Under the pieces are notes generated by a model. That model had not been told where the DNA came from. It searched no databases and saw only the letters and a list, made by a program, of their open reading frames with translations. Source: a virus. Taken from it: DNA of 64,000 nucleotides. Below are positions 4,589 through 62,486 of the stretch, one piece after another (positions within the stretch are counted from its first letter, which is position 1; the number at the start of each line of letters is the position of its first letter). Both the position numbers and the translations under genes were made by a program. The stretch spans positions 5,476-69,475 of the IMG/VR virus record IMGVR_UViG_3300023242_000006; one strand, written 5' to 3'.

Positions 4589-4648
4589 CTGCTTCCATGG
4601 TACAAAGGTACATATAATATTTCATATACGCAAATAAATTTTATATTT

Positions 4649-5056
4649 TTATTTTAAATATTTGTATTTTGTTTTAACTATCGCATATAGTTCTTTTAAT
4701 TTAGAACCATGTGGTTTTCCTTGTCCTAACCCTTGTAGTGTTTTAAATTCATTATCGAAAATTGATTGTAACGTTTCTTTTGTTTCTGCATTATGAATAA
4801 TAGCTTCAACTTCATCAGCATATTTCCAGAATTTATCTGATTTTCTACTCATCGAAATAGTAAGTGTTAACATAAAACCAAACGGAACCCCAACAAATAA
4901 CCCCATTTTAAGATTCACAAACTGATTTAGAGGTAATTCAGCACTATCACTAAAAAATTGGAAGAGTAAGAAGATAAAAATTACAGTAAATAACCACCAA
5001 AAAATAAAGATTTGAAATAAAGGTGCTGTGTCAAAAAAGTTACTTAATTTTTTCAT
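4649..5056 (-). CDS. Membrane protein (N-terminal TM helices)
   Basis: Hydrophobic N-terminus FFDTAPLFQIFIFWWLFTVIFIFLLF. Confidence 0.5.
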   Translation of the reverse strand: MKKLSNFFDTAPLFQIFIFWWLFTVIFIFLLFQFFSDSAELPLNQFVNLKMGLFVGVPFGFMLTLTISMSRKSDKFWKYADEVEAIIHNAETKETLQSIFDNEFKTLQGLGQGKPHGSKLKELYAIVKTKYKYLK

Positions 5057-5440
5057 ATTGTTTTTAATTTAGGTTCATTTGTCAATTTCTTTTTCGAAAT
5101 ACTTTTGCATGATGTATGCAAGTAATGTACTTTGTATAATAATTTCTGGATATGACCAGTGTTCAAGGATAAGCGTAAGCCCTATCGTGATGAATAGGAA
5201 CAATATTATAAATAAGCCAAATGTTTTCATAAGTTAGTTTTTCTTTCGTGTTCCAATACTTTTATATGTCTTTTTAGTGCGTTAATCTCGAAGTCTTTTG
5301 CATTATCAGTTGTTGCTTCATTAAATACGGCTCTGAACGTTGCGTACAGTCTTCTGTGTGATATTTTGAACCGTGCCAAGTCCCAATCAATCATACGGTT
5401 CTTGGCATGTTTGTTTAGTAATTCAGCCAGTTTGTCCATA

Positions 5441-5671
5441 TTATTTTGTGTTGCATTTACAGTGTCCCGCATGTGTCATTGAAATTCCATCTCTAACTTT
5501 GGAATAGATATAAGTATGACCTTTGTAGTCAAACTCTTGTATGTCTTCAGCATGTGAAAAAGCACCATTGCTAATTCTTACAGTACCTTTTGTTGGCGTT
5601 TTTTGTTCTACATGAGTTGTTGTTTCACCACACCCAGTTAACCCTAATAGAATGAACAGAACCCAAACCAA
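5441..5671 (-). CDS. Putative lipoprotein
   Basis: Signal peptide with lipobox LGLTGC. Confidence 0.45.
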   Translation of the reverse strand: MVWVLFILLGLTGCGETTTHVEQKTPTKGTVRISNGAFSHAEDIQEFDYKGHTYIYSKVRDGISMTHAGHCKCNTK

Positions 5672-5688
5672 TGATAATTTTTCTTTAA

Positions 5689-6129
5689 TTATAATAAAAT
5701 GTTTGTTGATGTTGTACTCTTTTCATTGTACTCACTTACCGTATAATTAAACATTACTTCGTGAACTTTTATCACCTTTGATGTATCTTGTTTGATTACG
5801 GTATGTTGGAAACGTTCGTAGAACTTCACGTCTTCTGCTTCAAACTCGTGGATGAACCAACCATGTTTTTGCAATATTATAATGTCGTCTTTGGTAAACC
5901 AAAAGAACAAGTTATCTAGTGTTTCTACTGCTGATAACCAACTTGCTATTTCTTCGTCAAAATCCATAGCTAAATTTGAGTTAGCACAAAAACTAAACTC
6001 ATTATGAATAAGTCCAGTGAATTCACCATTGAATGCGTACCAAAGACCTTGTAGTGTATCTTTGTGGCATACTCTGAAATATGTTTGTTTACAGCTCATT
6101 TTCTTTTTCGTATAGGTGCCTTCCAACAC
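5689..6129 (-). CDS. Hypothetical protein
   Basis: ORF of 146 aa. Confidence 0.5.
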   Translation of the reverse strand: MLEGTYTKKKMSCKQTYFRVCHKDTLQGLWYAFNGEFTGLIHNEFSFCANSNLAMDFDEEIASWLSAVETLDNLFFWFTKDDIIILQKHGWFIHEFEAEDVKFYERFQHTVIKQDTSKVIKVHEVMFNYTVSEYNEKSTTSTNILL

Positions 6130-14427: not shown

Positions 14428-14768
14428 ATCTCAAAGTTTTGGTTATTCACACTATCCTGTGTGGTTTCGTAAACCTGTGATTTAATTTTGTTGTAACCAT
14501 TGGTGTCAGTTTCTCGTTCGTAGTTAATCAACAAACGCATTGAATGTAGAATATCATAACCCATTTTGTTAATCTTGTTACTAAACTTAACACCGTTACC
14601 AGTAACAGTCATTTTCACGATAAACTCACCACGAGTATGACTAGTCCATTGCTCACCATTTGAATGAAACAATGATATTACTCTACCATTTTTGGTAGGT
14701 TTGTCAGTAATACTGTATTCGTGAAGTCCTTCATCAAATACGTGGAATGTTCTTTTTACCTTAGACAT
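14424..14768 (-). CDS. Hypothetical protein
   Basis: ORF of 114 aa. Confidence 0.45.
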   Translation of the reverse strand: MSKVKRTFHVFDEGLHEYSITDKPTKNGRVISLFHSNGEQWTSHTRGEFIVKMTVTGNGVKFSNKINKMGYDILHSMRLLINYERETDTNGYNKIKSQVYETTQDSVNNQNFEI

Positions 14769-15027
14769 TTTTTGAACTTAATAGTGTTTGTAATTCGTTA
14801 AAGTCAGAATCACGTAGCTTTTCATCCTCATAATACGTATAGCTACTAAAAGATTGTGGGGTTTTTTCTTCAAGTTCAATTGAAAAACCACTTACATCAC
14901 CTTTACTAATTTTACCAAATTTGGTAGGGTCTTTAAGGATTTTTTTTAAATCGTTTTTAAGGGCGATATTTAATATGTTTATTTTCATATAGCAAAGATA
15001 TTAAAATTATTTATAATAAACAAATTA

Positions 15028-20389: not shown

Positions 20390-20630
20390 TTATAATGATA
20401 ATACATCATTAAATATGTTAATGTTTTTATTAACGATAACTAATTGAGTTTCGATATTATTTACTAAATCTAATTTCGCATCGTCATTTTTAGGGTTTGA
20501 GTCAACTAACTCTAAACTAGCTACTAATTCATTTCTAGCTTCAATTAATATTGATAAAAACTAATTGTTTGGTCTTTAGATAATGTTGAACAAACTTCAT
20601 TAACTGTAAATAATTTTTTGTTTATTTTCA
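20390..20630 (-). pseudogene. Frameshifted paralog of gene 18650..18958 (one base short in a T5 run)
   Basis: Reads MKINKKLFTVNEVCSTLSKDQTISFYQY* and then, in another frame, IEARNELVASLELVDSNPKNDDAKLDLVNNIETQLVIVNKNINIFNDVL. Both parts align to the 18650 protein. Own promoter motif at 20657. Confidence 0.55.
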
Positions 20631-20721
20631 TGTTTTTATATTTTAATTATTAATATGATACAAAGGTAAGTAATTTCCTGGACACTTGCAAATTTTTGAC
20701 CAGGTTTTTTCAAAATATTTT

Positions 20722-23188: not shown

Positions 23189-23518
23189 ATTATAAATTTG
23201 CTTTGAGATATTTGGTTTTAACTCTAATAAACTCTTCTTCATAATACTTTTCAGCATCTTCTATTGAAAAAGAAGAATAATACGACCACGCCCATAAGTC
23301 ACCACAACCCGAACCATAACCATCATCTTTATTTGAGGTTTCGCCCTCAATATATCAACTTCATAAGGATAAATATCTTCTAATTTATATCTATCACTTG
23401 GTAGTCTTTCTTTACCACGAAATGATACGTTTTCTATTACTTCAACAACTTGTCTTTCAACAGGTTTTTCAACACATTCTGGCGATGATTTCACTAAATA
23501 CAATTTAGGTAATCCCAT
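23189..23518 (-). pseudogene. Gene with an apparent single-nt frameshift near 23328
   Basis: ORF 23261..23518 degenerates into MMVMVRVVV junk. Another frame continues sensibly as EGETSNKDDGYGSGCGDLWAWSYYSSFSIEDAEKYYEEEFIRVKTKYLKANL*. Confidence 0.45.
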
Positions 23519-23769
23519 ATTTTGTGTATTTCATATTATTTCTTTTTTGCTTTTGTTTTTACAATCTCAACCATTTGTCTTTCAAATGTTGTAATTGCCG
23601 ATACAATCTTACGACAATCTTCGTCTGACAAAGATTCAAACCCACCAATCATGTCTTTGATACCTTTAGTGGACAAATTGACATAGATATTCTTCAAATA
23701 TTTAATCAGTACAATATTAATCTGATTAAATACTTAATTAATACAAAGGTACATATATATCAATTAAAT

Positions 23770-23905
23770 AAGACATGGGATATTGACCATATAGTTCCAT
23801 TATCATCAGCTAAAACAGAAAATATGTTATATAAACTATTTCATTTTTCTAACACACAACCTATGTGTAGTTATCATAACAGATTAATTAAAAAAATAAA
23901 ATCAT
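23770..23905 (+). pseudogene. C-terminal remnant of an HNH homing endonuclease
   Basis: The plus-strand frame reads WDIDHIVPLSSAKTEN..LFHFSNTQPMCSYHNRLIKK. It matches the C-termini of the HNH proteins at 42116 and 43842, and there is no N-terminal part. Confidence 0.55.
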
Positions 23906-23908
23906 TTC

Positions 23909-24538
23909 TTAACTTTTTTTTATTATTGGGTTAATAACCTGTTCAATTATTTTGATTGCAGATGTTATTTTTCGATAGTCTTCGTTGTTTAAAGTATCAT
24001 TTTTTGTAAAATAATCTTTAATAAGACGATTATTAAGGTTAACATAGATATTCTTCAGGGTATTACCCTTTAACATAGCACGTTGAACTGGTGATGCAAC
24101 ACCACCTTGTGCTTCAATGTCCTTGGTAATCTTTTCTTTACCATATCTTCTAGGAATCAAAGCTTCTTTCTTCTCGGACACTTTGTCCTTGACAATGACC
24201 TTGATAGGTTCCACAACTTGCTCAACTACTTCTTCAACTTCAATCACCTCTGCGACCTCAATAGGTTCAGTTTGTGGTGTTGGTGGTGACTGCATTAAAC
24301 GTTGATACTTATTGATTAAATCTTTACTTGTAAGAATAAGGTTTTCAAACAACCCAACCAACAATTCTTTGGTTGAGTTATTTAACTTGCCCTCTTTTTG
24401 TAGAGAGTATAACATAGTAAACGGTATTTTAATTTCATCTGTAAAGATTTCTTTTAAATCGTTGTTCTGCTCAATAATTCCTAGAATAACTAATTCATTG
24501 TACTCTAAATCTGCTATTTTTTCAATTGTTTTTGTCAT
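23909..24538 (-). CDS. Hypothetical protein with acidic PEV-rich linker
   Basis: 209-aa ORF. Its C-terminal about 45 aa is duplicated as a fragment at 23560-23700. Confidence 0.5.
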   Translation of the reverse strand: MTKTIEKIADLEYNELVILGIIEQNNDLKEIFTDEIKIPFTMLYSLQKEGKLNNSTKELLVGLFENLILTSKDLINKYQRLMQSPPTPQTEPIEVAEVIEVEEVVEQVVEPIKVIVKDKVSEKKEALIPRRYGKEKITKDIEAQGGVASPVQRAMLKGNTLKNIYVNLNNRLIKDYFTKNDTLNNEDYRKITSAIKIIEQVINPIIKKS

Positions 24539-24550: not shown

Positions 24551-24928
24551 TTATATGATTGCTCTTTCGTTAATTTCTTCAACAACTTCAGCGTTTTTTT
24601 TAATACATTTTTCTAAATTCAATCTTAAACTACCAATTTGGTTCTTCATCATATCGTGTGTTGCACGAATAATAATCATTTCTAACTTATTACTTCTACG
24701 TCTTTTTAAGATTTCTTTGCCTTGTTTAAGCAATCTATGGGATTCAGAAATATGTTTAACATCAGTACCTTCTACCAGATGATACCAACCAGATAACTCT
24801 CGGTCAATGTTACCTTGTTTTTCACTCACATCTTTATAGTTTGATTCAATTTTGTCAAATTGATTAATGAAATCAACTACTGATTGTAACATCTCATTGT
24901 CTTTGGCAACTAATTTTAATTTCTCCAT
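24551..24928 (-). CDS. Hypothetical protein
   Basis: 125-aa ORF. Its 5' end and promoter are duplicated at 28165-28320. Confidence 0.5.
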   Translation of the reverse strand: MEKLKLVAKDNEMLQSVVDFINQFDKIESNYKDVSEKQGNIDRELSGWYHLVEGTDVKHISESHRLLKQGKEILKRRRSNKLEMIIIRATHDMMKNQIGSLRLNLEKCIKKNAEVVEEINERAII

Positions 24929-25136
24929 TTTTGGTTTGTGTTAATTATTATAATGCAAAGGTATATATAATAATTTAACCCACCAAATATTTTTATGAAT
25001 TTCTTTAATTTTTGGTGCAAAAAGTGTTTTCCTAAAACTTCGTATGTTACCATGCCACTAATTTTATTTGACAAAAAAAAAAACGAAACTTCAAAGAGAA
25101 ATCTCGTTTTTTTTTTGAAAAAAGTTTAGTTTAATT

Positions 25137-28100
25137 CTAATCTTTAATTATTTTTATTGTCCTTGTTTTTAATTTAACAAAATATACACCCTTAGTTAAA
25201 TTACCAAAGTAAATAGTGTTACCATCTTGTTTTACCTTGATACTTCTACCCAAAACGTCATAAACTTTTACTCTTATATCGTTAGTTTCTAAGTAAAGAA
25301 CATCTCTAACGGGGTTAGGATAGGCGTAAAATAAGTCTTCTTTAACTTCCACCACTTTAAGAGGCTCTTGATAAACCAATTGAAATCTACCATTAAATTC
25401 GCCAACTTCTGATGTAAATGTATGGGGTAGTGAGTGTAATACTCCGTTATCTTTTACGTATACATTTTGTATTCCTTGAATTGAATCTAGTGATATTGTA
25501 AAGGTTTCGGCAACTGCTGTAAAATAACCTAACCCAACAACATCATTAACGTCAAACTCACCTCTCGACTGTATTTTATTTAAGTTATCAGAGTCATCTA
25601 AAGAGTAAAATTTAATAGCTTTTCTTGGAGATGAATCAATGTAGTCCCACCCCTTCTGATAGTTTTTAGTTGTTTCAGAGCTGTAACCTATAAGTTGTTG
25701 AGAAAATAACCCTAACTCTGTTGTTAAATTTAACCAAACCCTTTTAATTGAATCTTGAGATGTTCTAAAGAATACTACACTCGTCGTATTATCAATAACT
25801 TTATCCATAAAACTAGGTCTGAATATCAAATCATTTTCTGTCTGAGCCTCAACTAAGAAACCTTGCCCGCTACCAATCGCTGATGTTGGTATCTTACTAG
25901 TAAACGTTGCTGTAGTTCCTATTGTACCAGAAGTAGCCGTTCCACCTAATAAATTGTAATACGCATAATCCGAGGTAGAAAAATTATTAGCTTGTAGCCC
26001 TGGGTAAGTTGTTAAAAAACTCCCCGTATGTGTCCAATATGCTAATGTTCCGCTAATATTTGCTAAGTTTTCATTAATAAAATCGTTAGCTTTAATTGAC
26101 GATGAATAGGGGTTTCCCACTAAATTAAAATCATCAATATTACTAGAACTATTACCACTTAATTTTAATGGATATACAATCACCCCCGTATTCAAATCTC
26201 CCGTAAATGTCACTAGCTCGCCTCTTGGGTAGGGTGGTGAATTTGGTATTGATTTTATCATAGATGCATATCCCTTTCCCGCAACCATACTGTCTGTTTG
26301 GCTAGATAGAGTCCAAGCAAAGGGAGCTTCATCATCTTGACCATCGGGGTCATCAGATTGAAATACTCCGTTAAGATGCGTTTTAGTATCTAAAAAATTT
26401 TCCGTTATAAATTCAAATGTATAGTTATTTTGCCACGCCCCTAATGCTTGACTTATTGTTGTATTTACAGAGCTAGACAAATATGTATAGTCATATCTTT
26501 TCATTTGGGTAGTTCTTCTCTGAACAGAAATATTTCCATTTGAAGTTGATGAATCATTTATTGGTATTAATTTTCCACCCGATTCCACTATAAGACTTCC
26601 AAGATTCTCAATGTGGTTCTGAACAGTTACAAAATCACCCGATTTTACAACTAGACTCCCATTAACAGTTAAATTACAACAATCGAAGCTACCATTTATA
26701 GAAGTGTCATAATTACCATTTATTACAGCATTTCTAGTCTGAGAGGGGAAACCACCAACCCAAGAAGTTCCATTCCAAGTTGATGTTAAATTACAAGTAG
26801 CTAGTGTAATATTCTGATTTAATATATTATATCCATTAACATTATCCCACAAGCCAACATTAGCAAATTGAATTGAGTAACCAAGGTTATTTTCTAAATT
26901 ATTATCCGCTATATGTAATAACAACTCATAAGTGTCATTAGGCAAATCATTAGGTATTGTAATTGTAAATGAGTTCGTTCCCTTGTTAAGTTCTCTAATA
27001 TCAAAATTAATTAAGCGTTTAGTATAAACAGTTCCTCTTTTAAAGACTAAATATAATTTCTTTTCGTATAAAATATTAGCGTACCCAACATTATCTACGT
27101 TTAAGGTAAGTTGATTACCAATAATACTACTTGAGCGAAGTACAAGCCTATACCCAAGGTTTTTAATAATGGTTTCATAGTGGTTAGAAGCAATCCAATT
27201 ATTCCAAGTTGGAATATGGTAGTCTCTATTTAAAGTTGTAAAATTAAGATTATTCATCTCAGTAATAGCGTTAGAACCACTTGTTCTAGGAGGATTAGAC
27301 CCGTTAGTTTCACCCGTCATTGGTAAATAGCGAGAAGTATTAGATATGAACGTGTAGTCGGACGAACCCACAGGATTAGTAAATTGACCGCTAACACTAT
27401 AAGTCCCCATATCTGCATAATAATTTAAAAAAGCATCGTTATAGAAACCAATTCTATCCCCTCCAAAATTAGTAGGTACAGAATTACCATACATTATTCT
27501 CTTAGCATTAGCATATCTAAGTTGTAGTGGTATGTCAATATGAAAGTTTGCTAACATTGAATCGACAACTTCCTTTCTATTAGCCCATTGCACGTTTGAT
27601 ATAGTACCCGCATGCCCAAATTCGGTAGAGCTTGTATAATACCATTCACCCCAAGTTCCTATAAAACCCGCTTGAATTGACATTACAACATCTTTATTTA
27701 AATTTACAACATTTGACAATTGAGAGATGTGGCTTAGTATTTGAGACTTAGCGGGTTGTTGTAAATTAGTGCCACTATAACAATTTGAATCACAATCATT
27801 AGTATAAGCAAATCTTATAATAACCTTTAATCCAGCATTGCGAATTCTGTCAAAATCTGTTTGCATATTGGTAATATAAGTTGATGTCAAAGCACCACTT
27901 GGTAAAATAAAATATCTGTATACGACAGTGACTCTATCGGTGGATGTGCGCCAATTAGTCAAAGTACTTTGAGATAGTTGATTATAGGAGAAAGAGGTGG
28001 CGGGGGAAAGTAAAGAGCCTGATATATTGATAGAATATTTTTGTAACCCCCTTTCAGGGTTTTCTATTATTGCAGTACTTTCGGTGTAATTTATGGTTTG

Positions 28101-28295
28101 GGATACCGCTACAAAATTGATGAATAATAACACCAAATATATTAAGTTTTTGCGTTTAACATTGATACCTTCTACTACATGATACCAACCAGATAACTCT
28201 CGGTCAACGTTATCTTCCTTTTCAGTCACATCTTTATAGTGTGATTCAATTTTGTCAAATTGATTAATGAAATCAACTAATTTTAATTTTTTCAT
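25137..28295 (-). CDS. Large secreted protein with T9SS (Por) C-terminal sorting domain
   Basis: C-terminus FYAYPNPVRDVLYLE...VKVYDVLGRSIKV....GVYFVKLKT matches the Bacteroidetes T9SS CTD pattern. The N-terminal 45 aa duplicate the N-terminus of gene 24551..24928 and are followed by a signal-peptide-like LIYLVLLFINFVAVSQ. Confidence 0.7.
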   Translation of the reverse strand: MKKLKLVDFINQFDKIESHYKDVTEKEDNVDRELSGWYHVVEGINVKRKNLIYLVLLFINFVAVSQTINYTESTAIIENPERGLQKYSINISGSLLSPATSFSYNQLSQSTLTNWRTSTDRVTVVYRYFILPSGALTSTYITNMQTDFDRIRNAGLKVIIRFAYTNDCDSNCYSGTNLQQPAKSQILSHISQLSNVVNLNKDVVMSIQAGFIGTWGEWYYTSSTEFGHAGTISNVQWANRKEVVDSMLANFHIDIPLQLRYANAKRIMYGNSVPTNFGGDRIGFYNDAFLNYYADMGTYSVSGQFTNPVGSSDYTFISNTSRYLPMTGETNGSNPPRTSGSNAITEMNNLNFTTLNRDYHIPTWNNWIASNHYETIIKNLGYRLVLRSSSIIGNQLTLNVDNVGYANILYEKKLYLVFKRGTVYTKRLINFDIRELNKGTNSFTITIPNDLPNDTYELLLHIADNNLENNLGYSIQFANVGLWDNVNGYNILNQNITLATCNLTSTWNGTSWVGGFPSQTRNAVINGNYDTSINGSFDCCNLTVNGSLVVKSGDFVTVQNHIENLGSLIVESGGKLIPINDSSTSNGNISVQRRTTQMKRYDYTYLSSSVNTTISQALGAWQNNYTFEFITENFLDTKTHLNGVFQSDDPDGQDDEAPFAWTLSSQTDSMVAGKGYASMIKSIPNSPPYPRGELVTFTGDLNTGVIVYPLKLSGNSSSNIDDFNLVGNPYSSSIKANDFINENLANISGTLAYWTHTGSFLTTYPGLQANNFSTSDYAYYNLLGGTATSGTIGTTATFTSKIPTSAIGSGQGFLVEAQTENDLIFRPSFMDKVIDNTTSVVFFRTSQDSIKRVWLNLTTELGLFSQQLIGYSSETTKNYQKGWDYIDSSPRKAIKFYSLDDSDNLNKIQSRGEFDVNDVVGLGYFTAVAETFTISLDSIQGIQNVYVKDNGVLHSLPHTFTSEVGEFNGRFQLVYQEPLKVVEVKEDLFYAYPNPVRDVLYLETNDIRVKVYDVLGRSIKVKQDGNTIYFGNLTKGVYFVKLKTRTIKIIKD

Positions 28296-28449
28296 TTTTG
28301 GTTTGTGTTAATTATTTTTATTAATTCATTGGGATTATTAAATTATTTGTATTACCTTTGTGTAACTTTCATAAAACCTGTGGTCTTACAACCACATATA
28401 TAAAGTCATGCACACTATACTCAATATAGTCTTCGAGTTTAGGTCTATA

Positions 28450-28839
28450 TTATTTAAAAGCTACTGGGTTATCTACAACTTTACCCATGGCGTTCGCTTG
28501 TTTTACTGACAAGTGTCTGACCTTGCCATCTGCATCTGGATTACCAGACACTGCTTTACCAATTGCTGACCTGTCGGTTGCGTTGTCCGCACTACCTACA
28601 CCCGCAGCATCCATTACTTGAGATAACTTTAAAAGTTTACCATCGCCTTGCGTTGCGTTTTTAATCTTTTTTGTTAACGTTTGAACTTTTTTCTTTTCGT
28701 CTTGGTTCAACTCAGTGAATTTACCCTCAACATCTTCTTTTTCAGTGTCTTCTCCACCACCTTCTTTGTTCGCTTCTTTTATTTTACTAAGTAAAGATTC
28801 TCTAAGCATGTCTTTTATAAATGATTTTTTCATATCCAA
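28450..28839 (-). CDS. Hypothetical protein
   Basis: ORF of 129 aa. Confidence 0.45.
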   Translation of the reverse strand: MDMKKSFIKDMLRESLLSKIKEANKEGGGEDTEKEDVEGKFTELNQDEKKKVQTLTKKIKNATQGDGKLLKLSQVMDAAGVGSADNATDRSAIGKAVSGNPDADGKVRHLSVKQANAMGKVVDNPVAFK

Positions 28840-29210: not shown

Positions 29211-29504
29211 TTAGTTTAATTTTTTTTCAAAGTCTTTTTCTATTTGTACCATAACCACTTCTTTAAATGCTTGGTTTATTATTTTAGAATCAACACCAAA
29301 AATTTTACATAACTGTATTTCTACATCCCAAAGATAAGTATTTTTATCTGATTCTATTTCTTTGATACTAAAGTCATGGGCCAAAGGAAAACTTTTTCCT
29401 TTGGCCCTATCAGCATATATTCTGTAAACAACATAATGCTTGTCAATATATTTTTTGACAAGCATCACATTAAAAATATCTTCTTTACTATTAATCAAGT
29501 TCAT
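29211..29504 (-). CDS. Hypothetical protein
   Basis: ORF of 97 aa. Confidence 0.4.
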   Translation of the reverse strand: MNLINSKEDIFNVMLVKKYIDKHYVVYRIYADRAKGKSFPLAHDFSIKEIESDKNTYLWDVEIQLCKIFGVDSKIINQAFKEVVMVQIEKDFEKKLN

Positions 29505-30369
29505 TGTAAGCTAAAAGAACTCTAGGGTTTCTTCTCAATACGTTAAGTGATTTTTCACGTACTTGACGTACTCTTTCACGAGTTATCCCCATTCTATCAC
29601 CAACTTCATTAAGAGTCATAGGATTATTACCATTCAACCCAAATAAACATTCCATGATTTCCCTATCTCTTAAAGATAAAACACCAAGAATTGAGTTTAT
29701 TTCATCAATTAAATTTGAATCATTCAATATATGGTCAGTTGCTTTAAATGAATTATCAGCAATCAATTCACCTAACGCTGAACCACCATCATCGTTACCA
29801 ACTTGACGGTCCAATGAATCCATATTATATGTGCTTAATACATCTAAAAACAGGAAATCTTCATCGTTCATTTCGTTACCAAACTCTTCCATTACTTCTT
29901 GAACATCTACTTTACGACCTTTTATTTGTTCAAGTTCAGCAATCTTTTTATTTAACTTAGATAAGCTATTCAATTTATTTGCTGGAATACGAACCATCGT
30001 ACCATTCTTTGCGATGTGTTCTAGAATTATTTTTCTGACCCACCATACAGCATATGAAATAAATTTATAACCCATACTTGGTGTGAATTTCTCAGCAGCA
30101 ATAACTAATCCGATATTACCTTCATTTACTAAGTCTTCCAATGCTATACCATTACTAACATATTGTTTAGCAACTGACACAACAAAACGTAAATTTTTTT
30201 GAACTAATTCATTTATGGCTTTTTCATCACCTAAACTTGCTCTTTCACTAACAGCAAATTCTTCTTCTGGGGATGAGAACAAAGGAACACTCCCAATTTC
30301 TTTTAAATATTGTTTGAAAGATTCATTCTCTCTATTGGTAAGTTTGTACGAAATTTTTAATTGCTTCAT
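29491..30369 (-). CDS. RNA polymerase sigma-70 family factor (regions 2-4)
   Basis: Region 4 HTH LNEVGDRMGITRERVRQVREKSLNVLR. Region 2 FISYAVWWVRKII. About 290 aa. Confidence 0.8.
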   Translation of the reverse strand: MKQLKISYKLTNRENESFKQYLKEIGSVPLFSSPEEEFAVSERASLGDEKAINELVQKNLRFVVSVAKQYVSNGIALEDLVNEGNIGLVIAAEKFTPSMGYKFISYAVWWVRKIILEHIAKNGTMVRIPANKLNSLSKLNKKIAELEQIKGRKVDVQEVMEEFGNEMNDEDFLFLDVLSTYNMDSLDRQVGNDDGGSALGELIADNSFKATDHILNDSNLIDEINSILGVLSLRDREIMECLFGLNGNNPMTLNEVGDRMGITRERVRQVREKSLNVLRRNPRVLLAYNELD

Positions 30370-30433: not shown

Positions 30434-30877
30434 TTAATCAGTGTTTCTTTCTAAGTCTCTTTTTAAGTCTTTTTCTTTGATGGAGTGTTTTTTATCATAT
30501 AAGTGTTTACCTTTACCCAAACCAATGTTAACCTTGATAAACCCAGTGTTTGATACTATAATTTCAATAGGTACAATAGTCAACCCCTTTTGCGATAAAC
30601 TTTTATCTAACTTAAAGATTTCTTTTTTCTTCATAAGAAGCTTTCTATCTCTTAGCGGTAAATGATTGTTATGTTTACCACCTTCTTTGTGTTCAGCAAC
30701 GTGCATACCTTTAATAAACAACTCACCATTGGAGATGTAACAATAAGCCTCAACAATAGAAGCCTTACCATTCCTAATAGACTTAACCTCAGACCCAACC
30801 AAGACGATTCCCGATACAAAAGTTTCGATAATCTCATACTCAAATCTCGCTTTGCGATTAGTTAAAATAACTTTCAT
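30434..30877 (-). CDS. smpB: SsrA-binding protein SmpB
   Basis: MKVILTNRKARFEYEIIETFVSGIVLVGSEVKSIRNGKASIVEAYCYI is the canonical SmpB N-terminus. Start trimmed so that the promoter motif at 30886-30895 lies upstream. Confidence 0.8.
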   Translation of the reverse strand: MKVILTNRKARFEYEIIETFVSGIVLVGSEVKSIRNGKASIVEAYCYISNGELFIKGMHVAEHKEGGKHNNHLPLRDRKLLMKKKEIFKLDKSLSQKGLTIVPIEIIVSNTGFIKVNIGLGKGKHLYDKKHSIKEKDLKRDLERNTD

Positions 30878-30954: not shown

Positions 30955-31083
30955 ATGAAAACAGATACAACTAAACTCAACATCACCCTTCCAACAGAGT
31001 TAATTAAAAAAGTAAAAGAAGGTAATTATAACCGTACTCAGTTATTAGTTAGTCTTTTAAAAAATTATATTAACAAAAAGTAA
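30955..31083 (+). CDS. Ribbon-helix-helix (CopG/Arc-like) small protein
   Basis: MKTDTTKLNITLPTELIKKVKEG... Short basic protein. Confidence 0.4.
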   Translation: MKTDTTKLNITLPTELIKKVKEGNYNRTQLLVSLLKNYINKK

Positions 31084-31159
31084 AATAATTAAATTATTTT
31101 ACGGTTTTTTCACCGTTTTCATTGTTTCATGATATTTATATGTATACAAACAAAATATT

Positions 31160-31318
31160 ATGAAAAAAGACAAATTATCACCAAAAGAGAGAAAACAAAC
31201 CATAAGTATCCAGATTCCTAATGAATTAATAATTCATTTAGATGTAATTAATAATAAGAGTAAATTCTTCGAATGGTTATTAATTGAACATTTTAACACT
31301 TTAAAAAATGGAAAATAA
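31160..31318 (+). CDS. Ribbon-helix-helix-like small protein; overlaps the start of the downstream endonuclease gene
   Basis: ..KQTISIQIPNELIIHLD.. Its stop overlaps the ATG at 31308. Confidence 0.4.
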   Translation: MKKDKLSPKERKQTISIQIPNELIIHLDVINNKSKFFEWLLIEHFNTLKNGK

Positions 31319-35225: not shown

Positions 35226-35336
35226 GTTTGGTTATATTATATGGTGGTCTATCACCACAATGTTTTCAATAGTACTGTTTTATGTGTGCCTCACGTGATT
35301 ACTCACATCAATGTCGCTTTAATAATATAACCTAGA

Positions 35337-35408: not shown

Positions 35409-35505
35409 ACTATCACTATGTCGCTCGGCAAAGTTAAACGTGATAGAAAGGATTATAACCGTCTGAAAGTTTGCCGACCTTCATGTTGCTATTCCCCAAT
35501 TTTGT

Positions 35506-35603: not shown

Positions 35604-35931
35604 AATTACTAGTCTTTCCTAGTTGTCAGAGGTTTTCCCTTCTACCATCGGTTCTGGCACACATCACCGAAAACAAGCTTTGCCTTTGTAAACTTCGTCA
35701 CCGTAAAACTCTCTGGCCCCTCTTATTTGATGTTCTTGGTCAGTTAAGTATCTCAAAGCGCTAAGCTTTTTAACTAACCAAAAACCCACAAGAGATGTTT
35801 CGTTCAAATCCAGACCATCATGTTTCTACTGACTAATAACCTCACACTGAAAGCGTACCCCGTGTTATTGGTTTTCGACAAGAGGAAATAAGATACAAAT
35901 CTCCCCACTCTGCTGTTGATTTGTGGTTGGG

Positions 35932-36020
35932 AAAGGACTCGAACCTCTCTGTAGGGTGCTACCCGTGCCAACACCTTCCATCGGAATCGAACCGACCTTC
36001 TCCAAGCCAACCAAATTGAC
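35932..36020 (-). tRNA. tRNA-like element D (about 89 nt) containing two T-arm-like hairpins (GGTCGGTTCGATTCCGA and AGAGGTTCGAGTCCTTT)
   Basis: Acceptor GGTTGGC/CCCAACC with one mismatch. Confidence 0.35.
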
Positions 36021-36344
36021 TTTACTTTACAAAGTCTAAGTAGGTTTAGTTGCAGACTTTCAAAACCTATACGTCTATAGGTCTCCTTCTTCTGAGTGCT
36101 TCTTTTCACAGAGTTTACCTCTATTGGTATGTTATCCCAGTTTTCAACACAAAACCAATGTGTTAGCAATCGTGGGGAGAACGGGATTCGGACCCGCAAT
36201 CTCTAGGTTATGCCCCCAGCGAATAATTTTCTTTCTAAATGTTAGTAACCACCTCTTCAAGTTGTACACCTATCCGATTTTAATCTAACACGTTAAACAA
36301 AAGAAACTCCAATCATTCTTCCTCCCTAACGGTTTTTGTAGACA

Positions 36345-36445
36345 AGACTGAATTTGAATCAGTACCGCCAAGCTAGCCACGCTCGGATTGGGTGTTTAAT
36401 GAGATTTGCCCACACCTCCAGCCATTATTGTGTCTACTGATTTAA
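36345..36445 (-). tRNA. tRNA-like element G (101 nt): perfect acceptor GTAGACA/TGTCTAC, T-arm ACTGATTCAAATTCAGT
   Basis: Direct reading. The internal domain does not fold as a standard anticodon arm. Confidence 0.4.
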
Positions 36446-36992
36446 GATTCTCCTAGAACCACCGCTCCTACGAAGCCAGCTCAGTTTTTCCACCACTTGT
36501 CTAATATTTGCCATCTTCACAACACGATGAGTAGCGTACATGCACGAGGATATTTCACCTCTTTAGGAACTCGTACTCCCTACTATTTTCGGTCTAGCCG
36601 ACCAGCGCTACCTCTAATCAACAAACGCCATTTGTGTTTGACTATAGTGTCTGAACATACCAAGTTCATAAGTTTTGATTACATCTAAGCCGCTAAGCCT
36701 AATATCACGCACCAGACCTTACTGGTATCAGTGTGGTTAACACTACTTGTTGACTTTGAACAAATATTTTAATAAATCACATATCACCAAGAATGTATAA
36801 GTTATATAAGCCCAAACCCTCATACACCGCCTAGCTTAACACCCTTATAAAACTTTGCTCAAATTACCTTATGAGACTTACATTCTTTCTACAGTTAAGT
36901 TTACAACTTATCTTACTTAACAAACATAACACCTCTTGTAGTATTGTAACTAACTTATTACTTGTTTGTCTTTCTATATGTGATTAATATGA
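36446..36992 (-). ncRNA. Roughly 550-nt noncoding leader between the promoter motif at 36993-37002 and tRNA-like element G; no ORF
   Basis: The promoter motif is followed by no minus-strand ORF. The track ORF 36497..36688 (+) looks spurious. GC content is moderately raised. Confidence 0.35.
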
Positions 36993-37055
36993 TACAAAGG
37001 TACTAACTCTTTTTTAAAAATGCAAGTATTTTGTATCATTTTTTTTGTTTTTTAT

Positions 37056-39849: not shown

Positions 39850-41877
39850 CTATAATCGAATTATTGTTAAATTAATATTCTTTTTATCGATATCTACACT
39901 AGAAACTACAACGTGAACCATATCACCCAAACGAATCTTATCACCTGTGTTATACCCTTTAACACAATAGTTACTCATATCAACTTGATATGTATCACCA
40001 GAAATTTCAGATAACTTAATAAGTCCTTCGGCTTTGGAATCAATTAATTCAACGTATATTCCGTATTCAGTTAATGATGTGATTATACCTTTATTTACAG
40101 TACCTACTTTATCGTTTAAATAAACACAATACATGTATTTGATTGAGTCACGTTCAGCTTTCTGTGCTTTCTTTTCTCTTTCAGATAAATGAATACATCT
40201 AGTTTCTAACTTCTCTAACTTAGGTGTTGTTTTCTTGTTCTCATCCAAATACAAAGCTAACAATCTATGAACGATTACATCACTGTAACGTCTGATTGGA
40301 CTAGTAAAGTGTGAATAGTTAGCAAAACCTAAACCATAGTGACCAATGTTTTTTGTTGTATAGTTTGCTTTTTGCATTGTTCTGACAACTAAGTTATTAA
40401 CCATATCTTCTTCAGCAGTACCACGTATATCTATTAACAATTTGTTAAGGGATTTTGTTGTTTCTTCTGGGGTATCGATTTTAATATCGTAACCAAACTG
40501 AACAATAAAGTCTTTTAACGCTGCTAACTTTTCTTCGTTAGGTTTATCGTGTGCTCTATTCACGTTGGGTAAACCTTTCGTGTTGATGAACTGAGCTACG
40601 TGTTTATTCGCTAACAACATGTATTCTTCAATAAGTTTGTTTGAGTCTTTGGCAACCTTGAATATAATCCCAGTTGGTTTACTATTCTCATCCAATTTGA
40701 ATTTGACCTCTTGTTTATCAAATGATAAAGAACCTTTTATCAAACGAACTTTACGCATCTTTTTAGCTATCTTGTTCAACGCCAATACAGCATCGGCTAG
40801 TTTTCTAGCTGGGTCCCAACCTAATAACCTTAAACCAGTGTCTTCCAATAGTATTTTGGTTCTACCCTCAACATCGTCTTTAGGTAACCTACCCAATTCA
40901 ATGATAGCTTGCGCTTCTTCGTAGCTAAATCTGTGGTCAGAGTTAATTACGGTTCTACCGAACCATTCTTCTAACACATGACCATTGTGGTCTAACTTAA
41001 AGACAGCAGAAAAACATAATTTATCTTCATTAGGTCTTAACGAACATAACCCATTAGATAGGTTCTCTGGAAGCATAGGGACACATCTATCAACTAAGTA
41101 AACACTTGTACCTCTGGCAAAAGCTTCTTTATCTAATTCGCTATCTGGACGTAAGTAATGTGATACATCGGCAATATGAACGCCAACATACAACTCACCA
41201 TCAAGCCATTCCACGCTCAACGCATCGTCAAAGTCTTTGGCATCAGCTGGGTCAATTGTGAAGGTAAGTACATCACGCATATCTCTACGTTTATCAATTT
41301 CTTCTTGTGTAATTTCTGTAGAAATCAAATTGGCCTCCATAATTACATCTGTTTCGAAATAGTAAGGTAAACCATATTCTTCTAAAATACTATGTATCTC
41401 AGTTTCGTGTTCACCAGCATTACCTAGAATTCTGATAACTTCACCGTTAGGGTTTTTAGCACCTTCTTTCCATTCAGTTATACTTGCAATTACTTTTTGG
41501 CCTTCTGTAGCACCCATTGTCTTGTTTAATGGAATAAAAAAGTCAATTGGTAGTTTGTTGCTATCTGGAACAAAGAAAGCAAATTTAGCGCTTATTTGGA
41601 TTACACCAACAAACTCTGTTCTAAAACGCTCAACTACCTCAATTACTTTACCTTCAAGTGCACGACCTTGACCAACCATTACCTCAATTTTTACCTTATC
41701 CAAATGCAACGCATGGTTAGTGTTGGTTTTATGAACATAAATGTCTTTTGGTAAATTCTCACTCACCAAATATGCGGACCCACTTTGAGTCATTGAGATT
41801 CGCCCTTCTAGTATGTCACCAACATTAATTCTATTTATTTTTTTTTCTATCATTATTATTTTTTTACAAATATACAT
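39850..41877 (-). CDS. RNase R / RNase II family 3'-5' exoribonuclease
   Basis: 675 aa with N-terminal OB/cold-shock-like region, central RNB-like region and C-terminal S1-like domain (..GIITSLTEYGIYVEL..). The size is that of VacB/RNase R. Confidence 0.65.
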   Translation of the reverse strand: MYICKKIIMIEKKINRINVGDILEGRISMTQSGSAYLVSENLPKDIYVHKTNTNHALHLDKVKIEVMVGQGRALEGKVIEVVERFRTEFVGVIQISAKFAFFVPDSNKLPIDFFIPLNKTMGATEGQKVIASITEWKEGAKNPNGEVIRILGNAGEHETEIHSILEEYGLPYYFETDVIMEANLISTEITQEEIDKRRDMRDVLTFTIDPADAKDFDDALSVEWLDGELYVGVHIADVSHYLRPDSELDKEAFARGTSVYLVDRCVPMLPENLSNGLCSLRPNEDKLCFSAVFKLDHNGHVLEEWFGRTVINSDHRFSYEEAQAIIELGRLPKDDVEGRTKILLEDTGLRLLGWDPARKLADAVLALNKIAKKMRKVRLIKGSLSFDKQEVKFKLDENSKPTGIIFKVAKDSNKLIEEYMLLANKHVAQFINTKGLPNVNRAHDKPNEEKLAALKDFIVQFGYDIKIDTPEETTKSLNKLLIDIRGTAEEDMVNNLVVRTMQKANYTTKNIGHYGLGFANYSHFTSPIRRYSDVIVHRLLALYLDENKKTTPKLEKLETRCIHLSEREKKAQKAERDSIKYMYCVYLNDKVGTVNKGIITSLTEYGIYVELIDSKAEGLIKLSEISGDTYQVDMSNYCVKGYNTGDKIRLGDMVHVVVSSVDIDKKNINLTIIRL

Positions 41878-57252: not shown

Positions 57253-57253
57253 A

Positions 57254-59937: not shown

Positions 59938-60856
59938 CGTGATGTTCGTATAGGTTCGTTAATCCCTATACCGTTCTCTTATGAACTGCTACATTTTTCA
60001 ATGTAGACCAGACTATATCAACATCTTATAAATAAGATGGTATCCATTTCCACTCACTTGAGTGTACGTCTTTCGACTAGTCGTTGAACTTTTTTAATCT
60101 TTATTTTGATAAGTATAAATTCTAGTTATGTGAGAAATAAACTCTTCTGTCGTCATGGTACTTTTTGAATTATTACAAAACTTACAACAACTAACACAAT
60201 TATCAACAGAATAACCAATAGAGTTATTTACTCTATCAACACCATTAACTCTAAATGGAGAAGTATCCATTTTTTTTCGTTTAGTGCCTTTCCATCCCAT
60301 ATGTGGTTCTAAACCACAATAATGACAATTACCATCTAGTAATTTATAACATTCCTCAGTAGTTAACTTAAAAAAGTAATTTCTTCTTGTTGCTGCTTTT
60401 AAATAATTTCTAAAAATTTCATGTTTAAGACCTTCAAAATTTGGTTTTGATTGCCTTTCAACTATTTTTTCTTTCATTAAACAACCACATGATGCGTGTC
60501 TACCGTTTTTTAAAAGATTACTTCTAGCTATTGTGGTATTACCACAATCACATTTACAAAGGTAACCTTTTTCTCTACTGTGATGCTCAATAACTGTTAA
60601 CCTATTGAACTTTTTACCTATCATTTTCTCTTTTGCTTTCATATGTTACAACATTAATTATAATAATAAATATATAACTATTTCACAAAAGACATTAAAA
60701 ATTAAACTTAGCTGCTGATTTTCCAATCTCTTACCTTTTCAAACATTCACGATTGATGTTACCATCTGCGTTGTAGTGTTAAGAGCTCTAAGGACGTTCC
60801 AGCAATTAGAATACTTTCGATATGGTGTCACCACCATAAAGGGCTATATTAATCTA
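59938..60856 (-). mobile_element. Group I-like intron (about 919 nt) interrupting nadV, carrying an HNH endonuclease ORF
   Basis: On the RNA strand exon 1 ends ..GUAUGGU and the intron ends ..CAUCACG (terminal G) before ACCCGAUU. Splicing restores VWY-PITV, which is conserved in NAMPT. Confidence 0.65.
60094..60642 (-). CDS. Intron-encoded HNH endonuclease
   Basis: C..C pairs and C-terminal GVDRVNNSIGYSVDNCVSCCKFCNNSK. Confidence 0.7.
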   Translation of the reverse strand: MKAKEKMIGKKFNRLTVIEHHSREKGYLCKCDCGNTTIARSNLLKNGRHASCGCLMKEKIVERQSKPNFEGLKHEIFRNYLKAATRRNYFFKLTTEECYKLLDGNCHYCGLEPHMGWKGTKRKKMDTSPFRVNGVDRVNNSIGYSVDNCVSCCKFCNNSKSTMTTEEFISHITRIYTYQNKD

Positions 60857-61394
60857 ACCATACTTGCAACAAGATAGTTTCTAAAAAGTTAGTTAACCAT
60901 GCACAGTTCTCATCTAAAGATTCGATAACGAACAAAACATTTTTGGTTCCAACTACATTTCCTTCTGGAACTGCTTTGATGCTGATAGGTAATTTACCAT
61001 CATACATCTCGATAATATAATCGAATTTTGTTCTATCGAATACATCGTCACGACCAAACACACCGTGCTTTGTACCTAAATATTCAAATGCTTCATCAAC
61101 CTCTTCTTTCGTAATGGCAACACCTTCTAAGTATTGTTTTAAAAAGATTTGTAACCCGTAGAATACTGTCTCAGAGAATTTACCACCTCTTGATTCCAAG
61201 TAAGATACCATCTTAGTCATTTCACTACCATAGAATCTGTGATGTGAATATTTGTAAGCATCTGAACACAAAATCAAGTTGTTTGGTTTTGTTAACGCTT
61301 TACTGAGATATTTTTGAATACCTTCAATAGATACCCAATCTTTGTTTTCTATCGCAGTTTTTAATTTTTCAGCTATTTTTTTTTGTAAACTCAT
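60857..61394 (-). CDS. nadV: Nicotinamide phosphoribosyltransferase NadV/NAMPT, exon 1
   Basis: ..LCSDAYKYSHHRFYG... is the NAMPT N-terminus. The track ORF ends LQVWLD* just inside the intron. Confidence 0.7.
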
Positions 61395-61415
61395 GTTTTT
61401 GTTCTTTATTTAATG

Positions 61416-62414
61416 TTATTCACCAGTGTAAGTTACATTATCAATTCTTTCAACTAATCTTTCACCAATATTTGGTATAAGTTTTTCATCGTAAACTTTG
61501 TTAACCAAAGCCAACATCATTTCACGGTGTTCTGGCATTACTTTGGTTCTAACCGTATCAAAGTTACTGAACTCTCTAATTGGAATCCATTTAACATCTG
61601 CGATATCATCACTAGCTTTTGCGTAACCCATATTTTTGCGACCCAAGAATAACGTAGTCATTATCCCAGATTCTTCTTTGGCATATCTCCAATCTTTTAC
61701 TCTATGACTTAAGATATATTTTAAGTCGCTGATAACACAATTACCACCAGTTTCTTCACGAAACTCTCTCAAAGCTGCTTTTTCATAGCTTTCATCTGTC
61801 GGGTCAACAAATCCACCAACGAATCTCCAATACTTCTCGTTAGGTTTTCTACCCATAAGAATCTCACCTTCATCGTTGTATGCACAGATATCAACTGTTG
61901 GATAAGAGACTGGTCTTTGATTAAATGCTGAGTAGATAACACCAGACCTAAAATCAGTAGAGTCAAGAGTTTCTTTAGCGACATCTGCTCTAATGTTTGT
62001 AGCGTTATGGTTAAAGCTAGCTTCTAATTCAATAACTTGAAATTTGCCTTTGTAATGAGGAATGAACGAATCACGGCTACCATAAATAACTGTTTTCTTT
62101 TCACCAAACGGCATAGAAATAGCTGAATCAATTTCTGAACTCCATTTTTCATCGTATCTTTGGTCCATTACTGGTAAAATCATTAAACTAGGAAACGATT
62201 TTTGAATCATAGCTTTACGACTAGCAAAATCCAAAGGGTTTTTCTTGGTGTTTTGTACTCTAGACACACCTAGGATAAGTACAGTTTTTTTATGATTTGA
62301 AAGGACGTGGTTAATCAAGTCAATATGTCCTTTATGTAATCGGTTTGTTTGAAATCGCCCTATAACAACCCCAACTTCAAAATCCGTTGGTTCTATGTTT
62401 TTTTTAATGTCCAT
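61416..62414 (-). CDS. Bifunctional NMN adenylyltransferase / Nudix hydrolase (NatV/NadM-Nudix-like)
   Basis: N-terminus GRFQ..HKGH (nucleotidyltransferase H-x-G-H). C-terminal Nudix box GGFVDPTDESYEKAALREFREETGG. Start trimmed to MDIKK, downstream of the promoter motif at 62438. Confidence 0.75.
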   Translation of the reverse strand: MDIKKNIEPTDFEVGVVIGRFQTNRLHKGHIDLINHVLSNHKKTVLILGVSRVQNTKKNPLDFASRKAMIQKSFPSLMILPVMDQRYDEKWSSEIDSAISMPFGEKKTVIYGSRDSFIPHYKGKFQVIELEASFNHNATNIRADVAKETLDSTDFRSGVIYSAFNQRPVSYPTVDICAYNDEGEILMGRKPNEKYWRFVGGFVDPTDESYEKAALREFREETGGNCVISDLKYILSHRVKDWRYAKEESGIMTTLFLGRKNMGYAKASDDIADVKWIPIREFSNFDTVRTKVMPEHREMMLALVNKVYDEKLIPNIGERLVERIDNVTYTGE

Positions 62415-62486
62415 ATTTGATTTTATTTTTATAGTACAAAGGTACAAAAAAAAATGCAGATAAAACAAATTATCTAAAAGTTTTTT

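Follow-up and report, generated by a model that had tools for sequence, protein, structure and literature searches.

Bacteroidota-type two-part promoters as the probable identity of a recurrent decamer in an uncultured jumbo phage

A decamer recurs, almost always on the same strand, in a 64,000-nt stretch of viral DNA (positions 5,476 to 69,475 of the IMG/VR record IMGVR_UViG_3300023242_000006; hereafter the window), and we identify it, with a probability of about 0.82, as the extended -7 element of 23 two-part Bacteroidota-type promoters, with one further copy on the opposite strand, which head the non-structural transcription units of a jumbo phage with a Bacteroidota host. The window has a G+C content of approximately 31%, and nearly all of its genes lie on the minus strand, so that the decamer reads TACCTTTGTA on the coding strand. 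PHROG and Pfam matches assigned phage genes of the non-structural type to the window, including those for a T5 A1-like DNA transfer protein, an RNB-family nuclease, NAD-salvage enzymes, homing endonucleases, HAD and metallophosphatase proteins, SmpB and a Band_7 protein. While a megablast search of 24 kb of the window against cultured phages returned no DNA-level match, relatives in IMG/VR were found on contigs of 200-362 kb, placing the phage in an uncultured jumbo-phage clade.

The pattern KACAAAGGTA (TACAAAGGTA / GACAAAGGTA) occurred 22 times as exact matches in the window, versus 0.53 expected from dinucleotide-preserving shuffles (shuffle maximum, 2), and 36 times when up to one mismatch was allowed (9.7 expected). 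The exact matches were distributed as 21 on the plus strand and one on the minus strand (p = 1e-5 for the bias), and 20 of the 21 plus-strand copies were located outside the bodies of open reading frames (ORFs), even though intergenic DNA accounts for 15.5% of the window (P = 1e-15). The strand bias of the box tracked gene orientation, with the copies standing in the sense direction upstream of transcription units. When any base was accepted at the first position of the decamer, 24 plus-strand copies were obtained, and TGCAAAGGTA at 24954 represented the 25th, in good agreement with the approximately 25 copies counted in an initial annotation of the sequence. All of the 22 coordinates given there corresponded to true copies, with deviations of 0-8 nt in position (e.g., 4601 for 4594, 18599 for 18607, and 18984 for 18979), and the copies at 7285, 24954 and 60555 had been omitted. 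Its statement that the motif always lies just upstream of minus-strand genes was valid except for the copies at 60555, 23742, 36993 and 20659. As had also been described, the 10.1-13.7 kb block and the plus-strand genes lacked the motif, the plus-strand box at 28353 heading no plus-strand gene. A scan of the window with a position-weight scoring matrix trained on the very sites that it recovered yielded 23 coding-strand sites and one plus-strand site, with no site scoring between 12 and 24 bits and none in the shuffled sequences. No second enriched intergenic motif was found, as the enriched intergenic 8-mers, low-complexity ones aside, all derived from the box, and the presence of a single promoter class, as first proposed, was thereby upheld. 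Matches to E. coli-type -35/-10 elements in the window were not enriched (100 versus 106 ± 10), and promoters of this type were rejected.

Alignment of the 24 TACCTTTGT sites on the coding strand revealed that the decamer constitutes only half of the signal. A TTTG(G/C) ended 21 nt before the TA of the box, leaving a 20-nt gap occupied by an unconserved spacer, and an A-rich (A/T-rich) block was present further upstream of this TTTG. The TTTG or TTG was positioned exactly 20 nt upstream of the TA at 20 of the 23 sites and 21 nt upstream at one, and was missing in two. All of the 23 coding-strand sites as well as the plus-strand site read TACCTTTG, in which T-12, A-11, T-8, T-7, T-6 and G-5 were constant. 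The two bases at -10/-9 (hereafter nn) were CC in 23 of 23 coding-strand sites and G in no site of the window, the G of the box was followed by TA in 17, and the base at the predicted start site (+1) was A in 16 of 23. The promoters appeared at a density of one per approximately 2.6 kb, or about five genes.

These properties agreed well with the promoters of the Bacteroidota primary sigma factor (sigma-A or sigma-ABfr), as described for Bacteroides fragilis, Bacteroides thetaiotaomicron, Flavobacterium johnsoniae and Flavobacterium psychrophilum, whose consensus is composed of TTTG at -33 and TAnnTTTG at -7 (PMC7366714). The box is located at -12 to -5 in F. psychrophilum (PMC9723704), while in F. 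johnsoniae T-12, A-11, T-8, T-7, T-6 and G-5 are invariant or nearly so, G is absent from -10/-9, and the box is separated from the start site by 4-5 nt (PMC6847099). The phage sites shared the invariant bases, the absence of G at -10/-9, the TTTG at -33, a spacing within the published 19-21 nt and the location upstream of genes. TACCTTTG also conformed to the refined -7 consensus TAHHTTTG of Baez et al. 2019 (PMC6847099), and the promoter identity assigned in the initial annotation on the basis of TAnnTTTG was thus borne out, although neither the -33 element nor the sigma-A-like factor encoded by the phage (29491-30369; see below) had been noticed. The occurrence of the -33 element at its canonical distance makes the promoter assignment much stronger than it would be from the decamer alone. 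In contrast to the hosts, in which nn varies, the phage used CC in 23/23 and TA after the G in 17/23 sites; moreover, F. johnsoniae promoters display little -33 signal (PMC6847099), whereas about 21 of the 23 phage sites carried it. A full-text literature search for TACCTTTG retrieved only unrelated primer and sequence matches. In a collection-wide scan with the pattern TTTG-N19-21-TACCTTTGTA, the matches listed were mostly single and scattered.

The same features bear on the notion that the decamer is not a promoter element but serves as a translational signal or is bound by a phage protein, whether as a repressor operator, as a signal for replication or packaging, or as the target of a nuclease. 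Such a role would fit a 10-mer that recurs without variation some 23 times on one strand, with part of the copies inside inverted repeats. However, the signal is bipartite with the exact -33/-7 sequences and spacing of the host, the decamer has no internal symmetry, and the copies stand in strict sense orientation upstream of genes with A at the predicted start, so that we regard this explanation as highly improbable. A ribosome-binding role in particular was ruled out by the distance to the ATG, which varies from 0 to 31 nt.

When +1 was taken as the fifth base after the G of the box and the leaders were computed from the resulting spacing, the predicted leader was 0 nt at six sites (ATG at 4598, 13729, 34370, 43743, 52372 and 57817, in each case 4 nt after the G), 2 nt at one site (30877) and 12-31 nt at fifteen sites. 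In B. thetaiotaomicron and F. psychrophilum, measured leader lengths have modes of 23-24 nt (PMC7366714, PMC9723704), around which the longer leaders of the phage lie. The arrangement TTTG-N20-TACCTTTGTA was found on the minus strand, as were all of the 23 sites, at P6644 (6632-6668; predicted leader, 15 nt), P14147 (14135-14171; 24 nt), P18993 (18981-19017; 23 nt), P20324 (20312-20348; 26 nt), P23001 (22989-23025; 31 nt) and P46332 (46320-46356; 12 nt), the last of which precedes gene 46308, whose orthologues carry the box upstream in 18 of 19 cases. It was also found at P20668 (20656-20692), where just a 28-aa ORF (20545-20631) is situated before the next promoter. The box was TACCTTTGTT in P7294 (7282-7318; 17 nt) and P15970 (15958-15994; 22 nt), TACCTTTGTG in P10026 (10014-10050; 19 nt), TACCTTTGTC in P21162 (21150-21186; 24 nt) and TACCTTTGCA, a variant unlisted in the initial annotation, in P24963 (24951-24987; 23 nt), each of them again behind TTTG-N20. 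The upstream element was CTTG in P18608 (18596-18632; 26 nt; same-place box in 3/3 orthologues), P38955 (38943-38979; 15 nt) and P37002 (36990-37026), all with N20-TACCTTTGTA, and P62444 (62432-62468; 18 nt), which heads a cytidylyltransferase/NUDIX gene, combined TTTG and TACCTTTGTA with a 21-nt gap. P30891 (30879-30915; ATTG-N20-TACCTTTGTA-tatt-ATG), with the predicted leader of 2 nt, heads an operon encoding SmpB and the sigma factor.

The six sites with predicted leaderless geometry were P4610 (4598-4634; TTTG-N20-TACCTTTGTA-cc-ATG, predicted +1 at the A of the ATG at 4598), P13741 (13729-13765; TTTG-N20-TACCTTTGTA-cc-ATG), P34382 (34370-34406; TACCTTTGTA-tc-ATG behind a degenerate -33 element, TTAG), P43755 (43743-43779; TTTG-N20-TACCTTTGTA-at-ATG, heading a T4_Y16D-family gene), P52384 (52372-52408; CTTG-N20-TACCTTTGTA-gt-ATG) and P57829 (57817-57853; TACCTTTGTA-gt-ATG with no clear -33 element), and all six units open with ATG. 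Given the published box position at -12 to -5 and the distance of 4-5 nt to the start site, +1 would coincide with the A of the ATG in these units. Leaderless transcripts had been proposed initially for the units at 13729, 34370, 43743, 52372 and 57817; the ATG indeed lay within 2 nt of the decamer at these five positions, and the list is to be extended by 4598 (2 nt) and by 30877, where the ATG is 4 nt after the decamer. The predicted share of 6 out of 21 promoters of protein-coding genes exceeded the 5.5% reported for F. psychrophilum (PMC9723704; P = 7e-4), and, as a proportion of all units, 26% compares with 3.7-5.5% in Bacteroidota hosts.

Leaderless mRNAs, which are frequent in Actinobacteria, Deinococcus and archaea and rare in Bacteroidota, open with a 5'-terminal AUG; here the ATG lies at the predicted +1, with a fixed spacing that was kept at orthologues. 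In the present case, they are predicted from promoter geometry, occur in a phage side by side with leadered units that have the same type of promoter, and would be 3-5 times as frequent as measured in Bacteroidota hosts. The possibility that the leaderless promoters form a sub-class with a weak -33 element was rejected, since across the clade the -33 frequency was 77% in leaderless and 79% in leadered promoters, among sites chosen without requiring a -33 element; the sole difference was an AG at -14/-13, present in 44% of the leaderless versus 17% of the leadered promoters (p = 3e-6, clade-wide).

The same architecture was detected in approximately 100 loci of related jumbo phages, in which the TA, the TTTG and a following YA were kept, while nn was lineage-specific and uniform within each phage. 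The window shared the class TACCTTTG with L024, L087, L088, L209-L213 and L222, whereas TATATTTG was found in L006-L011, L214-L219 and L224, TATCTTTG in L014-L017 and L252, TACATTTG in L026, L032, L220 and L221, and TACTTTTG in L046-L051 and L058; overall, nn among the relatives was TA, TC, CA, CT or CC, with G being rare. For 516 unique boxes in the relatives, the distance from the G to the first ORF-opening ATG peaked sharply at 4 nt (58 cases, versus 8 at 3 nt and 12 at 5 nt), and after a trough at 8-10 nt a broad mode followed. The predicted +1 was A in 71% of 261 leadered promoters of the relatives, in which no start codon forces the base, and the -33 element showed clade-wide frequencies of about 90% for T-35, 85% for T-34 and 72% for G-33. 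What varied between orthologous genes was nn and the spacer, the box being retained together with its spacing: the 4-nt spacing was present in six of the seven box-bearing orthologues of gene 52372 (nn being CC, TC or TA), in eight of the ten of gene 57817 (TC, CA or CC), and in the L220 orthologue of the gene behind P34382. Such a pattern is what would be expected for promoter elements under purifying selection.

Three Flavobacteriia phages devoid of a sigma gene served as controls, namely Cellulophaga phage phi17:2 (145 kb; tblastn detected no sigma gene), Maribacter phage Panino and Flavobacterium phage elemoF. Their two-part matches numbered 0.8-2.3 per 10 kb, were mixed in nn and included no decamer that dominated, compared with approximately 4.4-8.6 boxes per 10 kb and uniform nn in the closest sigma-encoding jumbo relatives. 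Uniform nn has thus far been seen solely in the sigma-encoding jumbo clade. Panino possessed TTTG[TC]A boxes and one leaderless arrangement (TATATTTGCAgtATG), indicating that host sigma-A suffices for both of these traits.

The phage-encoded factor (29491-30369, minus strand) is a 292-aa protein of the sigma-70 family spanning regions 1.2 to 4.2 and represents a candidate second reader of the box. Its gene is located directly downstream of smpB (30434-30877), both behind P30891. The protein was 42-43% identical to cellular Bacteroidales RpoD and collinear with it from Met-1 (residues 1-283 versus 1-277), the cellular sequences being genuine database hits obtained by a protein-database search with a bait sequence, and its score of 219 bits against Bacteroidales RpoD compares with 170 bits for the top-scoring sigma-A that the PDB has from any other phylum. 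Like Bacteroidota sigma-A, it carries the N-terminus M[KR]QLKI..[IL]TNRE, has no region 1.1 and contains the motifs FISYAVWW and TRERVRQ. Identity to the 120 nearest database relatives was 50-100%, and in the three relatives examined smpB was found near the sigma gene (adjacent in two) in phage-like contexts. No homologue above 37% identity was found in cultured phages, and a scan of bacterial genomes with the phage protein returned a single 35% match from Oscillospiraceae and no cellular comparison set.

With regard to this factor, it is possible, though we consider it rather unlikely, that the phage sigma is the main reader of TA-CC-TTTG-TA, taking over the core polymerase and telling phage from host promoters by the lineage-specific nn and flanks, while host sigma-A fires these promoters weakly or only at first. 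The sigma gene is a conserved core gene of the clade with retained SmpB-sigma synteny, region 2.4 reads WW[IV]RK in all phage copies versus WWIRQS in cellular sigma-A, the sigma-encoding relatives have the dense and uniform boxes that the sigma-less phages lack, and the nn class largely tracks the sigma tree, in which CC occupies one clade plus a separate branch (L222), CA has a clade of its own and TA occurs widely. There are also published precedents, as jumbo phages with RpoD-like sigmas have been proposed to recruit the host core polymerase (PMC7824862), and a huge phage targets the host sigma-70 gene while encoding its own sigma (PMC7162821). However, no residue in sigma regions 2.3/2.4 covaried with nn, so that encoding of nn by sigma residues was rejected; only S45 and K209 separated CC from non-CC phage sigmas, and both are outside the -10-recognition elements. 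Shared ancestry may be all that ties nn to the sigma tree, the box is a perfect host consensus rather than a distinct one, and the sigma-less controls number only three. In addition, the early promoters of T4 are uniform and read by the host sigma, so that uniformity requires no phage sigma. Finally, the promoter of the sigma gene is itself of the same type, and host sigma-A must therefore fire at least P30891 first, unless the sigma protein is injected together with the DNA.

As a still more tentative extension, the lineage-private -7 boxes (TA-CC-, TA-TA-, TA-CA- and TA-TC-TTTG-YA) might be read preferentially by the WW[IV]RK phage sigma, which would keep the core polymerase on phage DNA after host sigma-A has been displaced or destroyed, with the leaderless mRNAs providing a separate translation route. 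In a 232-kb relative (L153, IMGVR_UViG_3300033984_000473), CC boxes at 190.6-203.5 kb head the genes for a PARP-type ADP-ribosyltransferase, two RNA ligases, a DNA ligase, an HD protein and a NUDIX protein; that this ADP-ribosyltransferase might modify the host polymerase like T4 Alt/Mod is speculation.

Stable hairpins (z ≤ -3.9) overlapped five of the 23 promoters. A terminator-like hairpin (GTGACACTA...TAGTGTCAT with a T-run after it; z = -5.8) carried the -33 element of P6644 in its loop; the -33 elements of P13741 and P21162 were situated within terminator-like hairpins at 13778-13751 (z = -4.0) and 21199-21172 (z = -3.9), and that of P18993 within the second of two hairpins (z = -4.7), the first being a GC-rich terminator upstream (19058-19031), while in P20324 a hairpin extended across the spacer (z = -4.2). 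The three sites at 6644, 13741 and 21162 shared a 62-nt unit (D14) with 79-89% identity, in which the -33 TTTGG occupies the loop of the stem and a T-run comes after; judged by its sequence, this unit resembles a fusion of an intrinsic terminator with the promoter that follows.

It is worth weighing whether the uniformity of the boxes arose within each genome by the spread and gene conversion of a terminator-promoter cassette of about 40-60 nt (concerted evolution), an account of how the uniformity came about that does not conflict with a promoter role. Concerted evolution that mediates gene shuffling, rather than selection for a given nn by any sigma, would then be at work, comparable to the mobile cassettes of the T4 type, which consist of a repeated promoter plus hairpin flanking variable genes, with similarity beyond the promoter elements. 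In line with this, a repeat finder returned the promoters as repeat families of 34-62 nt (D9-D14, D17), the 62-nt hairpin-plus-promoter unit recurs at three sites, five promoters overlap stable hairpins, and nn is lineage-specific without sigma covariation. A further point in its favour is the gene at 25137-28295, which encodes the type IX secretion protein described below: a segment made up of the 5' untranslated region and first codons (approximately 170-200 nt; 24754-24954 and 28154-28321) occurs in two copies of 91% identity, upstream of genes 24928 and 28295, and the relative L087 (12100-12290) lacks the 3.4-kb type IX secretion gene and has the inverted and forward promoters side by side. 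This gene thus seems to have entered between two promoters arranged back to back and to lack a forward promoter of its own. However, most spacers and flanks were dissimilar between copies, the similarity being confined to the -33 and -7 elements, and orthologous promoters held their position across 37-90% protein identity, which points to vertical inheritance under selection. We consider the cassette origin doubtful.

The sole plus-strand box (28329-28365; cattggg-N-TACCTTTGTG, box at 28353) points away from the gene at 28295 and is kept in L087 as half of the back-to-back pair. It is followed by a hairpin (CTGTGGTCTTACAACCACA; 28329-28400) and would transcribe antisense to the gene at 28450-28839, and so may drive a small or antisense RNA. 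Its interpretation as an invertible promoter was rejected, since the same back-to-back pair exists in L087, suitable inverted repeats were not found at its flanks and the gene insertion explains the layout. Two exact decamers on the minus strand were orphans without a -33 element. One of them (60555-60564) lies inside a coding region and is probably incidental; the other (23742-23751) is in a 390-nt intergenic region with the next ORF 221 nt away, and the pair are probably incidental or decayed copies. In that intergenic region (23518-23909), the orphan TACCTTTGTA is followed by a 9-bp stem-loop (TTTAATCAG...CTGATTAAA). Two candidate minus-strand promoters with a different nn were also noticed, namely TATCTTTGctatATG at about 15000 (14983-15000), with leaderless geometry upstream of the ORF at 14761-14988, and TATATTTGTA at about 41874 (41856-41877), upstream of the RNB nuclease gene; as candidates, they suggest that not all promoters of the phage use CC.

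Under the two-part promoter assignment, a promoter would consist of an A/T-rich block, TTTG at -33, the unconserved 20-nt spacer, TACCTTTG at -12 to -5 and then TA, and RNA polymerase carrying a Bacteroidota-type primary sigma would bind both elements and initiate transcription 5 nt downstream of the G, in most cases at an A. When infection begins, these promoters would be read by host sigma-A, as the phage sigma gene itself is behind one of them, and later the phage sigma-A homologue would probably read the same set. In six units, the start A would be the A of the ATG, giving a leaderless mRNA, and in one unit a 2-nt leader would be formed; the remaining units would have A-rich leaders, mostly of 12-31 nt, that lack a Shine-Dalgarno sequence, as in Bacteroidota hosts. 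At several sites, the position of the -33 element within the intrinsic-terminator hairpin of the preceding unit would make the termination and re-initiation signals overlap. The start sites, the reading sigma and the timing of expression in this scheme are inferred, whereas the architecture, enrichment, gene position and conservation of the boxes were observed directly.

Several points weigh against this assignment or narrow it. P57829 and P34382 have no recognizable -33 element, and because the scoring matrix was trained on its own sites, the site scores are circular, so that only the empty score gap and the zero count in shuffles are independent. CC at -10/-9 and TA at -4/-3 show far less variation here than do these positions in host promoters or the three sigma-less Flavobacteriia phages, which may indicate a selector beyond host sigma-A, e.g., the phage sigma; as the phage encodes its own sigma-A-like factor, host sigma-A as the reader is an unproven assumption. 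The start sites and the leaderless status in this phage, whose host is uncultured, are predictions from spacing. Lastly, the window comprises a non-structural region only, as does the distant part of the 232-kb relative, so that the assignment applies to non-structural regions, and the phage-wide occurrence proposed initially is unproven.

The assignment of the host to Bacteroidota, which had first been made from the promoter, received support from four lines of evidence beyond it. First, a Shine-Dalgarno core was present in only one of 112 genes, while the upstream regions were A-rich, with A at -3 in 67% of genes; A-rich, Shine-Dalgarno-free upstream regions match those of Bacteroidota (PMC6847099). 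Second, a 1052-aa protein (25137-28295, minus strand) carrying DUF4874 and DUF4832 had a C-terminal Por_Secre_tail domain, the sorting domain of type IX secretion (40 bits versus a cut-off of 27); the phage protein is apparently addressed to the type IX secretion system of the host and would thus be a marker of a Bacteroidota host. The third and fourth lines were the sigma-A homologue and the A1-like protein, whose closest relatives were found in Maribacter, Cellulophaga and Flavobacterium phages.

Other features of the window were also noted. Behind P37002 there is a 1.9-kb ORF-free, G+C-richer stretch (35100-37000, minus strand) with three tRNAs and tRNA-like modules, comprising a tRNA-Gln and two oversized tRNAs (one of 99 nt at 35127-35225, carrying an insert of 39 nt; the other of 98 nt at 35505-35602), the second of which was returned by ARAGORN in intron mode as a UAA suppressor with an intron, and several more T-arm-like modules, e.g., at 36173-36217. 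A tmRNA partner for SmpB in this region was rejected, as neither ARAGORN nor Rfam detected one. At 1-2700 on the minus strand, about 14 tandem small paralogous genes (60-95 aa) are built of a repeat with a 12-nt period (on the coding strand, similar to GGATTCAGTAAG) encoding a tetrapeptide repeat, and ATTCAGTA occurs in 80 copies on the minus strand. On the opposite strand at 30955-32380 (plus-strand ORFs 31160-31318 and 31308-32258), a DUF723/T5orf172 endonuclease-type gene contains three internal repeats of about 160 nt (D8). This block is located between a 34-aa SmpB-like fragment (near 32260-32360) and the intact SmpB gene, is absent from L084-L086, and, from its arrangement, looks like the footprint of a mobile endonuclease insertion.

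The use of host-type promoters by a phage is expected, and the promoter family itself is of a known kind. The early promoters of T4 and T5 are recognized by the host primary sigma through a -35/-10 consensus, and they resemble the present family in forming many near-identical, stronger-than-host promoters upstream of small clusters of early or non-structural genes, in having upstream A/T-rich blocks, and in the stem-loops of some copies. They differ in that the elements here are of the Bacteroidota -33/-7 type, a full-length host-type sigma is phage-encoded, and a large share of units is predicted to be leaderless. The promoters of phage alternative sigmas of the SPO1 gp28 and T4 gp55 classes have a consensus unlike that of the host primary sigma, and their sigmas are divergent or minimal; here, by comparison, the box is a host-type consensus and the sigma is full-length and group-1-like, so that the family falls outside this class. 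A parallel in gene content is with the "group 2" jumbo/huge phages (PMC7824862, PMC7162821), which likewise have no RNA polymerase of their own and encode a near-complete cellular-type sigma, SmpB and tRNAs. No cognate promoter set is described in PMC7824862 and PMC7162821, whereas a candidate promoter family is available here, and the sigma in the window is specifically of the short Bacteroidota sigma-A type, lacking region 1.1 and collinear from Met-1.

The finding is thus of moderate interest for its pairing of the promoters with a primary-type phage sigma, for the lineage-specific uniform nn, and for the conserved leaderless excess. An uncultured jumbo-phage clade with contigs of up to approximately 360 kb is assigned to Bacteroidota hosts from sequence alone by several independent markers, and the promoter set provides a transcription-unit map for 64 kb of otherwise unannotated genes. 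The boxes also offer compact, presumably strong promoter parts for the engineering of Bacteroidota. Leaderless mRNAs are predicted for approximately a quarter of the units, in a phylum in which they are rare, which bears on Shine-Dalgarno-free translation initiation. As a host-type phage sigma is paired here with a concrete promoter set, the role of the RpoD-like sigmas of huge phages becomes testable in vitro, and if the lineage-private boxes were indeed read preferentially by these factors, they would be the first defined promoter set for a huge-phage RpoD-like sigma.

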